Shown one piece after another: positions 41,073 through 44,923 of a stretch of DNA of 64,000 nucleotides. Both the position numbers and the translations under genes were made by a program. The notes under the pieces are model-generated. The model had not been told where the DNA came from and did no database searches. It saw only the letters and a list, made by a program, of their open reading frames with translations. This stretch comes from Thermoplasmata archaeon. Its GTDB lineage: Archaea > Thermoplasmatota > Thermoplasmata > Thermoplasmatales > GCA-001856825. Position 1 is the first letter of the stretch. The number at the start of each line of letters is the position of its first letter. The stretch covers positions 109,747 to 173,746 of the forward strand of contig JAGDXP010000002.1 of NCBI GenBank assembly GCA_023256475.1. Direction: 5' to 3'.

Positions 41073-42233
41073 ATGAAAAACATAGCATCCTTCCAAGATA
41101 TAATCAACCTTAGGACTACCGATATATATTTCATGAGAGTTAGAGAGATCCTAAACAAGGCAGGAAAGAATCCCCATGTTGTAATGGACGTTACCCTTTC
41201 GAGCAGAGAATTACCATGGCTTGTGCTATCAGGCTTGGATGATTTCACAGCAATTCTTGAGGGCAGGCAGGTAGATGCATATGCACTAAAGGAGGGGACA
41301 ATCTTTCCACCGAGGGATATTAATGGAATCCCCATCCCTGCAGTGAGCATATCTGGAAAATATCTTGAATTTGGGCTTTTTGAGACACCATTGCTTGGTT
41401 CCATATCCCAGGCTTCCGGTATAGCTACTAAGGCTGCAAGGTTTAAGAAGAGAATAGGGGATTTGCCACTCTCATCATTTGGCGTTAGAAGAATGCACCC
41501 TAGTCTTGCGCCATTCATAGATAGAAACGCATACCTGGGGGGATGCGATAAAGTATCAAGCATTATTGGGGCCGAGAGGGTAGGAATTAACCCCGAGGGT
41601 ACCATGCCCCATTCCCTTCTAATAATCATGGGCGAGGAAAATGGATGGAGAATGTATGATGAAGTAATTGAGAGTGATGCGCCTAGAATCGCACTGGTAG
41701 ATACTTTCTGTGATGAAAAAGAGGCAGCAGTAAGAGCAGCGAAAGTAATAAAGAATCTTTCAGCAGTAAGGCTGGATACCCCATCATCCAGAAGGGGTAA
41801 TTTTGCAGATATCATAAGGGAGGTTCGCTGGGAACTTGACAGGAATGGGTTCAGCCATGTGAATATAATAGTGAGCGGAGGTATAAAAGAGGAAGACATT
41901 GAAACATTGAAGGAAGCGGGTGCAACCGGATTCGGAATTGGAACCTCGATTTCTAGTGCTCCCTCCATCGATTTTGCCATGGATATAGTTGAAATGGATG
42001 GTAGGCCCATTACCAAGAGGGGAAAGTTCTCTGGAAGGAAAAATGTATTTAGATGCCCTAAGTGCCACCTATTCAAAGTGAGTACGGAGAAAAGTGAATA
42101 TTGTCCCAAGGATAGAGAAATCATGGAAAATGTACTTGAAAAGATAATTGATAATGGAAAAATCATGTACAAAGAGGATTTAAAGGCCACAAGAAAGTAT
42201 GTTTTGGAGCAATTAAAATGGTTCGAATTATAA
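41073..42233 (+). CDS. Nicotinate phosphoribosyltransferase (type II PRTase) with C-terminal zinc-knuckle
   Basis: 386 aa. TIM-barrel PRTase blocks (GVRRMHP, VDTF, RLDTPSSRRG, IVSGGI) and CPKC...CPKD, as in the Thermoplasma-type NAPRTase. Confidence 0.85.
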   Translation: MKNIASFQDIINLRTTDIYFMRVREILNKAGKNPHVVMDVTLSSRELPWLVLSGLDDFTAILEGRQVDAYALKEGTIFPPRDINGIPIPAVSISGKYLEFGLFETPLLGSISQASGIATKAARFKKRIGDLPLSSFGVRRMHPSLAPFIDRNAYLGGCDKVSSIIGAERVGINPEGTMPHSLLIIMGEENGWRMYDEVIESDAPRIALVDTFCDEKEAAVRAAKVIKNLSAVRLDTPSSRRGNFADIIREVRWELDRNGFSHVNIIVSGGIKEEDIETLKEAGATGFGIGTSISSAPSIDFAMDIVEMDGRPITKRGKFSGRKNVFRCPKCHLFKVSTEKSEYCPKDREIMENVLEKIIDNGKIMYKEDLKATRKYVLEQLKWFEL

Positions 42234-42625
42234 ACTTATCCAGCAGCGGAAATGATGATACTGCAAATAAGTTACTGAAAATCCTAGATGGGATCAGCAT
42301 AAAGGGCTTTAAAATTACAGTAAACGGCAATGCCTATGATATATGCATAGAAATCCTAAGCGGCAATGTAAGAGCGCCCACTATTGAAACTTCCGAAGCA
42401 TTGGGAAGCGACCTTTGCCACTCTGCCAGATCTCAATTGATACCCTGCATTTTTAATCCTGTGAATGACGTAGACAAAATAAAGGTCACTGTACCAAAAC
42501 TTCCTGAATTTGATCTGAGCGGGAATGGCCCAACCATGTGCTTAGAAATGGAAATAAAATTTCTTGAAACCCTAATTTCAAGAATTATAAATTTAAAATT
42601 TATTGACCGCTCTTCCTCTCCTTGA
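42218..42625 (+). CDS. Hypothetical protein, translationally coupled to the NAPRTase gene
   Basis: 135 aa. ATG start overlaps the NAPRTase 3' end by 16 nt. No family recognised. Its 3' end overlaps the convergent eL40 gene by 26 nt. Confidence 0.35.
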
Positions 42626-42731: not shown

Positions 42732-42848
42732 AGCTTCTTTGAATGGCATGCGAGGTTAATCATTCCAACATATTTATGGTCTTCGATTTGTACGGACTTG
42801 CTGATTGATCCTACTGAAAAATTATATATGTAATACAATTGCAGGCAT

Positions 42849-43013
42849 ATGGAGGAGCTCCTTGTTCATTTTGATGTTTATAAGGACAACAAGAAATATT
42901 ACGCTAAAGTAAAGAGTGAACTCGGCGGGCTTAGAGAGTATTCAGCCAAGACATTGGAAAAACTTATGGAGATAGTTGCATTGGATATTCTGGAAGAACT
43001 TGAAAACTTATAA
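42849..43013 (+). CDS. Small HicB/UPF0150-like protein (tentative)
   Basis: Own translation gives MEELLVHFDVYKDNKKYYAKVKSELGGLREYSAKTLEKLMEIVALDILEELENL (54 aa). The strand-turn-strand-ELxG-helix pattern resembles the HicB-like fold. It overlaps the start of the next ORF. Confidence 0.35.
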   Translation: MEELLVHFDVYKDNKKYYAKVKSELGGLREYSAKTLEKLMEIVALDILEELENL

Positions 43014-43983
43014 TGATAAAAGATACTGGTCGGCCGGCGATGTAGAGAAATTTGCTTACTGTCCATTGAATTTATATTTAGCGCTGAAAGGAAATAAGGT
43101 GGAAGTATCTCAGGGGATTGAATATCAAAATAGTTTTTTCAAGAAAATAAAAAGGGCAATTAATAATAAAAAATTGTTGAGAGTTCATAATAGACTTTTC
43201 ATATCTCTCTATATTGCTGCTTTTGTACTGGTTATCACAACAATTCCCTTGTTATTTACAAGGTCAGATATACTAGTTCTTATAATTTTGATTGCTTCCC
43301 TCTTATCCCTGCTTTTCGGAACAGCAATTTATCTGCTGACATCTGTGGTAAGGAAACTCAGAGAATCCAGAAGACTTGAGGATTTAATTCTCTATTTCAG
43401 TATTGCAAGTCTGATTTTGATACTCATCCTCTATTTCTACTATTCCTTTAGAAATGATTTTGCTTTATTCGCTATCATTCTTTCAAACATTATAATTCTT
43501 TCAGATACTTACAGCTTCTATAAGATATTAACAACTTCTGAAATCATGACAATAAACGAGATTGATCCGGAAAAGGTATATTATATGGAAAATGGCGAGA
43601 ATCCTGTTCTCATAAGCGAAAGATGGAGGCTAAGGGGTGTCCCGGATTTAATATTGAAAGAAGAGGACCAACTGGTACCAGTGGAGATTAAGAGTAGTAA
43701 AAAACCAAGCTCAGTACCCTTTTCTCATTTGATGCAGCTGGTGGCTTACGCAGTATTAATAGAGGAAAATTACACATATGAGGTGAAGTATGGAATTTTA
43801 AATTATCCCAATGGCATATATAAAATTGAGATAACTGAACATTTAAAATTCCTGCTCGAGAAATTGCTTCGGGAAATGGATCAGATGGTGGAAACAGGGG
43901 TAGCGCATCGTAACCACAGCAATCAGGGGAAATGTGCTGGTTGCTTCAGGAAGTCTATGTGCCCAGAATCTCTTTCAAAGTGA
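42976..43983 (+). CDS. Cas4-family PD-(D/E)xK nuclease with 4-Cys Fe-S motifs and an internal four-helix transmembrane insertion
   Basis: 335 aa from TTG 42976 (alternative TTG at 43000). Motifs are YCPLNLYL, GVPDLIL...VPVEIK, QLVAY and CAGCFRKSMC. Four hydrophobic helices span aa ~74-182. Confidence 0.6.
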   Translation: MHWIFWKNLKTYNDKRYWSAGDVEKFAYCPLNLYLALKGNKVEVSQGIEYQNSFFKKIKRAINNKKLLRVHNRLFISLYIAAFVLVITTIPLLFTRSDILVLIILIASLLSLLFGTAIYLLTSVVRKLRESRRLEDLILYFSIASLILILILYFYYSFRNDFALFAIILSNIIILSDTYSFYKILTTSEIMTINEIDPEKVYYMENGENPVLISERWRLRGVPDLILKEEDQLVPVEIKSSKKPSSVPFSHLMQLVAYAVLIEENYTYEVKYGILNYPNGIYKIEITEHLKFLLEKLLREMDQMVETGVAHRNHSNQGKCAGCFRKSMCPESLSK

Positions 43984-44923
43984 TATATCTTCCCTCTTTT
44001 GCAGAGAACTGTGCCCCTAGATGCATGGCTGTTGAGATAACTCCATCGTAAGAGTTTGCTATTTTTAGCCCCTTGCCGACAAAGTCCTTTATCTCTTCCC
44101 TATACATATCTACCTTGGGGACCTCTCTAATAATACCATTTGTCTCGATCTTTGAATCCACGCTAGTGGAGAAGAAATTCTTAACTCTGATATATCCTCT
44201 TTCTCCCTGAATCACGAGATCGTTGTTTCCGTCTGGAATTTTTCTGCTGCTGATCGCTATAGCTGTCCTTGATTCACCGTAATCGAAAATGATATTGAAG
44301 TGGTCATCAATGGTCCTTCCCTTGGGATAACTTGTTGCAATTAACCCCTTTGGTTCCTCTCTGAAAATGTTATATATTGCGTCCATGACATGTACTCCAG
44401 TTCCCACAATGGAGCCTCCTCCCACCATGTAATCTACACCCCACCATGAATCGTTAAAGTTCCTAGATGAGAAGTGAGACCACTGCCCGCTCACTAATCT
44501 TATTTCCCCCAATTCTCCTTTTGAAATAGCTTCCCTTACATAATCCAAAGATGGATGGAATCTAAGATGGAACCCTATGGACAGCCTAAGACCTTTTTGC
44601 TGCGCAATATCATGAAGTTCCTTGGATTCCCTTACGCTCAATGTCATGGGCTTTTCCAGAAGCACATGCTTGTCATGAGTTAAGGCCAATTTGGTGAATT
44701 TATAGTGGAGATAGTTAGGGGATGAAATATAGGCGGCCTGGAAATCTTTGTGCATCATTTTCTCAAGATCGTCAAAAAATTCAGCTCCCACTTCCTTAGC
44801 ATATTTTGTCCCTTTCTGCCTGTCCGTAGAGTAAATGGCTGTAATTTTATTATCAGAACTCAAAATGGCAGGCATCACCCTATTAATGGCGTGGCTTCCC
44901 AACGATACTATACCGAATTCCAT
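43955..44923 (-). CDS. Gfo/Idh/MocA-family NAD(P)-dependent oxidoreductase
   Basis: 322 aa. N-terminal Rossmann fold MEFGIVSLGSHAINRVMPAI and the LLEKPM motif. Confidence 0.85.
   Translation of the reverse strand: MEFGIVSLGSHAINRVMPAILSSDNKITAIYSTDRQKGTKYAKEVGAEFFDDLEKMMHKDFQAAYISSPNYLHYKFTKLALTHDKHVLLEKPMTLSVRESKELHDIAQQKGLRLSIGFHLRFHPSLDYVREAISKGELGEIRLVSGQWSHFSSRNFNDSWWGVDYMVGGGSIVGTGVHVMDAIYNIFREEPKGLIATSYPKGRTIDDHFNIIFDYGESRTAIAISSRKIPDGNNDLVIQGERGYIRVKNFFSTSVDSKIETNGIIREVPKVDMYREEIKDFVGKGLKIANSYDGVISTAMHLGAQFSAKEGRYITLKEILGT

Follow-up and report, generated by a model that had tools for sequence, protein, structure and literature searches.

Why should a DNA nuclease of the Cas4 family carry long hydrophobic segments in the middle of its catalytic domain? 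This question is raised by a gene on the forward strand of contig JAGDXP010000002.1 of a Thermoplasmata archaeon (assembly GCA_023256475.1), which lies in a stretch of 64,000 nucleotides (positions 109,747 to 173,746) that we analysed as a whole and refer to as the window. An initial annotation had described the gene product as a solo Cas4-family protein interrupted by a block of four transmembrane (TM) helices. Our analysis leaves us highly confident of an architecture in which a Cas4 fold is split by membrane hairpins. As to what such an enzyme does, we read it as a membrane-tethered, cytoplasm-facing Cas4 nuclease that most likely acts on entering DNA, a reading on which our own judgement is evenly poised. 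Residue numbers refer throughout to the protein of 327 amino acids (aa) translated from the TTG codon at position 43000, and the coordinates of the features are collected in Table 1.

The membership of this protein in the Cas4 family, which the initial annotation had deduced from a RecB-like PD-(D/E)xK domain, is borne out by three profiles that all match above their curated cut-offs: TIGR00372 (cas4) with 84.0 bits on the intact protein against a cut-off of 65, PF01930 with 43.7 bits against 22.7 (E = 4e-11) and PF12705 with 37 bits against 22, scores well outside what chance would produce. Fourteen Cas4-type models of PADLOC match as well, and the motifs that had been quoted are all present, in the expected order, in the open reading frame (ORF) 42976-43983 (+), with 195 residues between C21 in KFAYCPLNLYL and D216. 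On the intact protein, the Cas4 profiles match only the C-terminal 125 residues, corresponding to model positions ~53-180. When aa 59-178 were excised in silico and the profiles rerun, TIGR00372 scored 86.6 bits and aligned over positions 5-179 of 180 with the N-terminal segment included, the Cas4g/Cas1g model went from 37.7 to 46.3 bits (positions 4-189) and the alignment of PF01930 extended to positions 25-158. Because the excised protein aligns end to end, we view it as one Cas4 domain that is split by an insert.

Searches of PDB sequences with phmmer returned noise only for the full-length protein and merely a weak match to 4r5q (E = 0.5) for the excised one, and we therefore turned to structural comparison. 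An AlphaFold2 (AF2) model built on 28 family members has a mean predicted local distance difference test score (pLDDT) of 79.7, rising above 90 over aa 201-300 (the catalytic sheet) and to 94 for aa 11-20, and contains four long helices of 25-49 residues. The best PDB matches of this predicted model in Foldseek are type I-C Cas4 structures (8d3q/8d3l, E = 6e-6; 8d3q_J, 6.2e-6), while the Cas4 part of the Cas4-Cas1 protein 7mi5_A superimposes with a root-mean-square deviation of 1.9 Å over 124 columns; further matches are MGME1, Pcal_0546 (4r5q), SSO0001 (4ic1) and ACE1. As modelled, the three-dimensional fold of the window protein is that of the Cas4/RecB nucleases.

The insert has the properties expected of a membrane block. 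With a 19-residue Kyte-Doolittle window and the classical threshold of 1.6, four windows between C21 and the catalytic core exceed the threshold (peaks 1.67-2.76), and these four peaks together with the four AF2 helices agree with the four hydrophobic segments that the initial annotation had placed between the cysteine and the aspartate. Across 28 diverse four-helix family members, on which the conservation described below is also based, the segment ahead of helix 1 has on average 5.8 Lys plus Arg residues, that following helix 4 has 4.6 and the loop between helices 2 and 3 has 2.8, as against 0.2 for loop 1-2 (2.6 residues long on average) and 0.6 for loop 3-4. Since this is the pattern of the positive-inside rule, both soluble halves would lie in the cytoplasm (N-in/C-in), which fits the earlier proposal that an even number of helices with positive-inside loops returns them to the same face. 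Membrane insertion and this topology are thus predicted from hydropathy, charge bias and the logic of a split form of the gene that is described below.

The four helices form a tandem repeat. Hairpin 1 (TM1-2) and hairpin 2 (TM3-4) align in hhalign with a probability of 98.4% and E = 1e-14; scores of this kind are inflated by compositional bias, but the consensus lines are in agreement, both hairpins having 'ER' ahead of the first helix and 'WL' in the second. With the hairpins homologous, forms of the protein with two, four and eight helices represent one, two and four copies of a single hairpin module.

A word-indexed homologue search with the single protein gave four matches only and made the family look misleadingly rare. 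When 1.84 billion cluster representatives were searched exhaustively with phmmer, 849 relatives were recovered at E <= 1e-3, of which 261 reach E <= 1e-10. We scored the best 150 of the 849 representatives by hydropathy and motifs. An N-terminal Cys motif followed by inserted hydrophobic helices is found in 64 of them, with two helices in 16, four in 26, eight in 13 and 1, 3 or 7 in nine, where one helix most likely lies just below the threshold. Another 52, of ~170-180 aa, have just one helix, at the N terminus, and lack the N-terminal Cys motif, 16 have at least two helices ahead of the core and lack an N-terminal Cys that satisfies the strict motif, nine have no scored helix (seven of these, mostly short, lack the N-terminal Cys motif and two have it) and the remaining nine are unclassified. 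The eight-helix versions, with 490-600 aa and four hairpin copies, include P0004 (L002:8001-9476), P0016, P0017, P0024 and others; the copy in L002 is archaeal, given that it adjoins the gene for ribosomal protein L15e.

When one genome was scanned for each species, at least 476 proved to encode a relative. The 80 with the best matches all belong to Thermoplasmatota, including Thermoplasmata, Methanomassiliicoccales, Aciduliprofundum/DHVE2 and I-plasma, some under generic archaeal labels and one metagenome-assembled genome (MAG) under the label Aenigmatarchaeota. The closest relative (81% identity) comes from a Chesapeake Bay MAG. Dozens of independent assemblies have the same uninterrupted architecture of 319-341 aa while differing at many synonymous sites, and the preservation of this architecture in hundreds of genomes upholds the initial view that it is not a frameshift artefact. 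The homologues proved widespread, and most of the best 150 representatives carry hydrophobic helices. The gene is therefore not the isolated oddity that it had seemed but belongs to a large family that is already annotated automatically ('CRISPR-associated exonuclease Cas4' by JGI, 'PD-(D/E)XK nuclease family protein' by NCBI). The part of the novelty claim that stands concerns the membrane architecture: no description of a membrane or transmembrane Cas4, and no characterised Cas4 that is an integral membrane protein, was found in the literature searched, which left most papers in subscription journals outside its scope and so does not prove their absence, and the word 'transmembrane' occurs nowhere in the reference phylogenomic study of Cas4. 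What was known already is the Cas4/PD-(D/E)XK annotation; what is new, as far as that literature goes, is the membrane architecture.

The single-helix relatives of ~175 aa turned out to be the C-terminal halves of a split gene, consisting of one TM helix and the core. At L089:302-1104 and L090:2641-3406, a gene of ~85 aa abuts the C-half with an overlap or a gap of 1 nucleotide (nt), and its product contains the Cys helix (e.g., ISASEIGKFAYCQRAWWL), the GxxxH motif and one hydrophobic helix at the C terminus. A metagenome scan with nine closer C-half sequences, from which 80 loci were fetched, found this N-half directly upstream in 42 loci by the strict motif (within L093-L167) and in two more by eye; three loci are fused, 12 uninformative and ~20 have unrelated genes upstream. 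Several of the split-form contigs have neighbours that resemble L,D-transpeptidases, and these contigs are probably bacterial. The split point is the short outer hairpin loop, leaving one helix and a cytoplasmic part on each polypeptide. As one helix per half is just what an N-in/C-in arrangement predicts, the position of the split supports the proposed topology, and since the N-terminal Cys motif sits on the separate N-half, the ligands of the cluster would be shared between two chains.

The catalytic and cluster residues of Cas4 are conserved across the four-helix members. Y20, C21, G39, G213, P215, D216, P227, K231, S242, H243, Q246, R304, H306, C312, C315, C321 and E323 are invariant in all 28, so that the four cluster cysteines (one N-terminal, plus C-x2-C-x5-C) are kept without exception, and E229 is retained in 26 and Y250 in 27. 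Position 43 of the GxxxH motif is His in 25 of the 28 and Gln in the other three, namely the window protein and the two relatives nearest to it. The counterpart of this residue in SSO0001, His62, ligates Mn2+ (PMC12501428, PMC13621843); the family as a whole thus has the metal-ligand His, and these three proteins lack it. Identity to P0003 is 68% over the core vs 47% over the TM block. Compared with an orthologue of 81% identity, the block shows 48 synonymous and 26 nonsynonymous codon differences and the core 44 and 27, indicating similar purifying selection on both.

The gene lies among housekeeping genes. In the window and its close relatives, the conserved order runs from CysS, nicotinate phosphoribosyltransferase, a 135-aa ORF, L40e and a 54-aa ORF to the Cas4 gene and then to a GFO/IDH oxidoreductase, a Na+/H+ exchanger, Cbf5 and SecY with a ribosomal-protein cluster. 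Clustering of the neighbours at 84 loci, 72 of which hold an intact copy of the gene, revealed no universal operon partner in these 72; the neighbours are housekeeping genes that differ from lineage to lineage, among them those for GlmS, a sugar nucleotidyltransferase and MtnA. No cas-like neighbour cluster recurred in the 72 loci, and no cas Pfam families occurred in four annotated neighbourhoods. The 64-kb window contains no tandem or CRISPR-like repeats and no Rfam matches. A PADLOC scan of 47 window ORFs, with ~44-62 kb left out, gave Cas4 models for this gene only among the cas families in the 25 of 98 matched families listed (to E = 3e-8), and a weaker cas match is possible. Stored Pfam annotation of ~10 kb downstream (to ~54 kb of the window) holds housekeeping and ribosomal genes, with ~54-62 kb falling in neither check. 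Within these scans, the initial annotation's picture of a solo Cas4 among housekeeping genes, with no CRISPR repeats or other cas genes, holds.

We found no relatives in IMG/VR or in phage records (INPHARED) and only one weak match in a plasmid search, and on these grounds we rejected an origin from mobile elements. A link to CRISPR was likewise rejected, as no array or cas genes were found in the window scans or the inspected loci and the gene follows taxonomy. In archaea, solo-Cas4 genes are vertically inherited and evolve like regular cellular genes (PMC5704561), and the prevalence of CRISPR-Cas is low in Thermoplasmatota (PMC12988326). Judging from the taxonomy of the best 80 relatives and from synteny within lineages, the gene is a solo-Cas4 in the sense of PMC5704561, that is, one located outside cas loci and mobile elements and inherited mainly vertically.

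Comparison with known systems sharpens what is peculiar about this family. With the archaeal solo-Cas4 proteins (COG1468/PF01930/TIGR00372; SSO0001, Pcal_0546 and that of M. mazei), it shares the core of D, ExK and QxxxY, one plus three cluster cysteines, the Cas4 fold, an encoding away from cas genes and a distribution that follows host taxonomy. The characterised members are soluble and often decamers, such as M. mazei solo-Cas4 with its 30.7-kDa subunits, and decameric toroids are ascribed to soluble Cas4 and solo-Cas4 proteins in the part of PMC12501428 that cites Lemak 2013, whereas the family described here has a hydrophobic insert of two, four or eight helices; its clade also has an HRNH motif of its own before the C-terminal cysteines, and the window protein has Gln for the metal-ligand His. 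CRISPR-associated Cas4 proteins (types I-A/B/C/D, II-B and V, and Cas4-Cas1 fusions; 8d3q, 7mi5) provide the best structural and profile matches and have the same catalytic and cluster motifs, but for the gene studied here no adjoining cas1/cas2 or array was found, it has not moved with an adaptation module and its product is predicted to be embedded in the membrane. The nuclease domains of Dna2 and AddB as well as MGME1, EXO5 and ACE1 share the fold, and EXO5, Dna2 and AddB also have the iron-sulfur (Fe-S) 'staple' between a Cys in the N-terminal part and cysteines at the C terminus; all five lack TM helices in the domain and are soluble repair, mitochondrial or Argonaute-partner enzymes.

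We propose that the window protein is the Thermoplasmatota form of solo Cas4, a PD-(D/E)xK DNA nuclease with [4Fe-4S] ligands into which a tandem pair of two-helix hairpins has been inserted, separating the N-terminal helices, which carry C21 and the GxxxH position, from the catalytic beta-sheet. The cytoplasmic halves would reassemble into a single Cas4 domain, with a putative Fe-S cluster probably stapling the N-terminal helix to the C-terminal CxxCx5C, and the four helices would hold the enzyme flat on the inner face of the membrane. We consider it likely that the protein is an active nuclease, and its chemistry would be that of characterised Cas4 enzymes, which are Mn2+/Mg2+-dependent and act on DNA ends and single strands. 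The tether would confine a nuclease without sequence specificity to DNA near the membrane, away from the nucleoid, and the likeliest substrate would be DNA that crosses the membrane, be it viral, plasmid or taken up from outside; our assignment of incoming DNA as the substrate is tentative, as are the functions in defence, DNA uptake or repair that the initial annotation had put forward. The enzyme would then be a constitutive, vertically inherited factor of entry surveillance or processing and not a CRISPR adaptation factor.

The substrate proposal draws on an analogy with SNIPE, a GIY-YIG nuclease that sits in the membrane, cuts phage DNA while it is being injected and becomes toxic upon deletion of its TM segment (PMC13190303). 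The likeness is functional only: a non-specific nuclease may face the cytoplasm from a membrane anchor and have its targets decided by location. SNIPE differs in its unrelated fold (GIY-YIG plus DUF4041), neither part of which was found in the window protein, where only Cas4/PD-(D/E)xK profiles match, and in its single N-terminal TM helix, which is not an insert in the catalytic domain. It is also bacterial, borne on defence islands and patchy in distribution, whereas the Cas4 gene studied here is vertically inherited among housekeeping genes.

Several points weigh against the proposed reading. A core cellular role would agree no less well than defence with strict vertical inheritance, a housekeeping context and ordinary purifying selection, and no gene in the neighbourhoods of the inspected loci points to viruses or DNA uptake. 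The case for membrane insertion leans on hydropathy, charge bias and split-gene logic, and a simple anchor has no obvious need for two, four or eight helices with conserved sequence features. Finally, the nuclease activity of the window protein may be altered by Q43 in place of the metal-ligand His.

The alternative that fares best takes up the first of these points and makes the protein a housekeeping genome-maintenance nuclease at the membrane with no role against foreign DNA, which might process the ends of chromosomal DNA or stalled intermediates where replication or segregation is attached to the membrane, or might clear DNA caught where the cell divides. Such a role would go well with vertical inheritance across the whole phylum, with core-gene neighbours (CysS, L40e, Cbf5, SecY, ribosomal proteins, GlmS and MtnA), with ordinary purifying selection, with the absence of IMG/VR or phage copies beside one weak plasmid match, and with the evolution of solo-Cas4 like regular cellular genes (PMC5704561). 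Yet no gene of repair, replication or division is a conserved neighbour in the 72 loci, and the need for a tether would be left unexplained. It also counts against this alternative that we know of no membrane-linked DNA repair pathway in Thermoplasmatota, and we regard it as rather unlikely.

The amplification of a hairpin with conserved sequence features to one, two or four copies speaks for a reading in which subunits form a ring whose helices line a membrane pore, coupling the passage of DNA to its degradation or end-processing as in ComEC. The protein would then be an archaeal (and, in the split form, bacterial) counterpart of the ComEC channel-nuclease with an Fe-S cluster shared by two membrane-anchored halves in the split form, and the very short outer loops as well as the decameric toroids mentioned above (PMC12501428, in the part citing Lemak 2013) would suit such an assembly. 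The helices of the 28 members, however, have no conserved charged or polar residues that could line a pore, no competence or pilus genes lie nearby in the 72 loci and the nuclease domain is predicted to be cytoplasmic, so that we deem a pore or gate improbable.

The conserved His has given way to Gln (Q43) in the window protein and the two relatives nearest to it, at a position whose SSO0001 equivalent His62 ligates Mn2+ (PMC12501428, PMC13621843). This could also mean that the lineage has lost the activity and retained a membrane-bound DNA-binding or redox-sensing Fe-S protein. Set against this, D216, E229, K231, Q246 and Y250 are all kept, Gln can still coordinate a metal ion and conservation within the protein is highest in the core, as the above comparison with P0003 illustrates. 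A lineage-specific loss of activity is thus distinctly improbable.

A match above the trusted cut-off of the cas4 equivalog TIGR00372, and the fact that Cas4 proteins are sometimes encoded away from arrays, might suggest that the protein serves CRISPR adaptation in trans, together with a Cas1-Cas2 module encoded elsewhere in the genome. We think this very improbable: no cas gene or array was found in the window scans or at any inspected locus, CRISPR-Cas is rare in the phylum (PMC12988326), CRISPR-associated Cas4 genes travel with cas1 and cas2 whereas the gene here follows taxonomy (PMC5704561), and a tether would hinder assembly with Cas1-Cas2. An artefact, either of genes fused by a frameshift or of a hydrophobic yet soluble helical insert, is hardly credible despite the split two-gene versions in other organisms and the soluble four-helix bundles that Foldseek also returns (E > 0.2), because dozens of independent assemblies share the same uninterrupted architecture, the split versions have their cut elsewhere and consistently in the outer hairpin loop, and soluble bundles fall far short of a hydropathy of up to 2.76 over 19 residues.

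Table 1. Positions of the Cas4 gene, its parts and its upstream elements in the window.
Feature	Position	Strand	Remarks
Solo-Cas4 gene, product predicted to be membrane-embedded	43000..43983	+	327 aa + stop, TTG start; ORF, gene-caller product P0001, Cas4 profiles
Upstream in-frame extension	42976..42999	+	orthologue L001 reads TTG CAT TAG here
N-terminal segment, predicted cytoplasmic, aa 1-62	43000..43185	+	C21 (43060-43062), GxxxH position Q43 (43126-43128)
Predicted TM helix 1, aa 66-84	43195..43251	+	Kyte-Doolittle peak 2.41; within AF2 helix 37-85
Predicted TM helix 2, aa 91-109	43270..43326	+	Kyte-Doolittle peak 2.76; AF2 helix 91-116
Predicted TM helix 3, aa 129-147	43384..43440	+	Kyte-Doolittle peak 2.48; AF2 helix 124-148; preceded by K/R-rich loop RKLRESRRLE
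Predicted TM helix 4, aa 154-172	43459..43515	+	Kyte-Doolittle peak 1.67; AF2 helix 153-180
Cas4 nuclease core, predicted cytoplasmic, aa 177-327	43528..43980	+	profile matches span aa 208-330 of 335-aa ORF
D216	43645-43647	+	within core, motif GVPD
E229-x-K231	43684-43692	+	within core, motif VE-I-K
Q246xxxY250	43735-43749	+	within core, motif QLVAY
C312-x2-C315-x5-C321	43933-43962	+	within core, CAGCFRKSMC; H303RNH306 ahead of cysteines
54-aa upstream ORF	42849..43013	+	overlaps Cas4 start by 14 nt
TATA-box-like TTATATAT	42822..42829	+	~20 nt upstream of small ORF's ATG

The start of the gene had originally been set at 42976, which is 24 nt too far upstream. The window, L001, L004 and L005, the four close genomes compared, all keep the TTG codon at 43000, which is also the start chosen by the gene callers, whereas the TTG at 42976 is not conserved, given that the L001 orthologue has an in-frame TAG two codons later. 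For this reason, we take the gene to span 43000-43983 with 327 aa, and the preceding 24 nt are probably not translated. The gene has a G+C content of 35% vs 41% for the window, a consequence of its many Ile, Leu, Phe and Tyr codons. Its 3' end overlaps a convergent gene for a GFO/IDH-family oxidoreductase (43955-44923, - strand) by 29 nt (43955-43983), and the same overlap is seen in L001 and L004.

Directly upstream lies the 54-aa ORF, whose product is 100% identical between the window and L001, with 25 of 165 nucleotides differing, all of them synonymously; in the same comparison, L40e is 96% and CysS 73% identical. Its family comprises 55 clusters, is confined to Thermoplasmata and has no Pfam match, and the AF2 model (pLDDT 93.6) shows a beta-beta-beta-alpha fold for which a Foldseek search against the PDB gave nothing below E = 0.2. 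A HicB-like antitoxin fold, considered as a candidate, is unsupported, as HicB ranks 36th and no match falls below E = 0.2. The initial annotation had proposed to check whether this ORF is conserved beside homologues of the Cas4 gene. The ORF is real and extremely conserved, but it adjoins the Cas4 gene only in the clade of the window and is found elsewhere in the genomes of Picrophilus and Aciduliprofundum MAR08-339, so that its product is not an obligate partner of Cas4. In keeping with what is generally known of archaeal promoters, the TATA-box-like TTATATAT suggests a candidate promoter for a leaderless transcript of the 54-aa ORF and the Cas4 gene.

A few further observations concern the neighbours. 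The 135-aa ORF at 42218-42625 (+), between the phosphoribosyltransferase gene and L40e, has no Pfam match, has diverged to 36% identity between the window and L001 while its neighbours reach 73-96%, and overlaps the convergent L40e gene with its 3' end; either it evolves fast or it is no genuine gene. Among the 47 ORFs scanned with PADLOC, one has strong matches to SspA and DndA (E ~ 1e-55). This ORF is most likely an ordinary cysteine desulfurase of the IscS/NifS type and not part of a DNA phosphorothioation system, and no other Dnd or Ssp components occur among the 25 of 98 PADLOC families listed. Elsewhere in the family, at 16 of the 72 loci (of Methanomassiliicoccales type; L012:5134-5949, L016:4538-5314, L019:5147-5977 and 13 others), a gene of ~265 aa on the same strand lies just upstream of the Cas4 gene, and its product has a PD-(D/E)xK-like motif, TPDCLLD ... 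WIESKASFGD. A second putative nuclease thus adjoins the Cas4 gene there, and its motif recalls what we take to be the 'TPD' nuclease-like family.

The nucleases of the Cas4 family have become known as soluble enzymes that serve CRISPR adaptation and DNA repair. A solo-Cas4 predicted to be built into the membrane across a phylum that is mostly without CRISPR-Cas, together with the split form, offers a testable lead on what the widespread archaeal solo Cas4 genes do, namely action at the inner face of the membrane. If the tether does aim the nuclease at entering DNA, this would be a second and independently evolved case of the SNIPE-type principle by which self and non-self are told apart in space, and it would give a clue to the function of Cas4 before its recruitment to CRISPR. 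It would be rare, moreover, for two membrane-anchored polypeptides to share one Fe-S cluster as those of the split form would, and the series of one, two and four hairpin copies would provide a clean example of a domain insertion that evolves by duplication.

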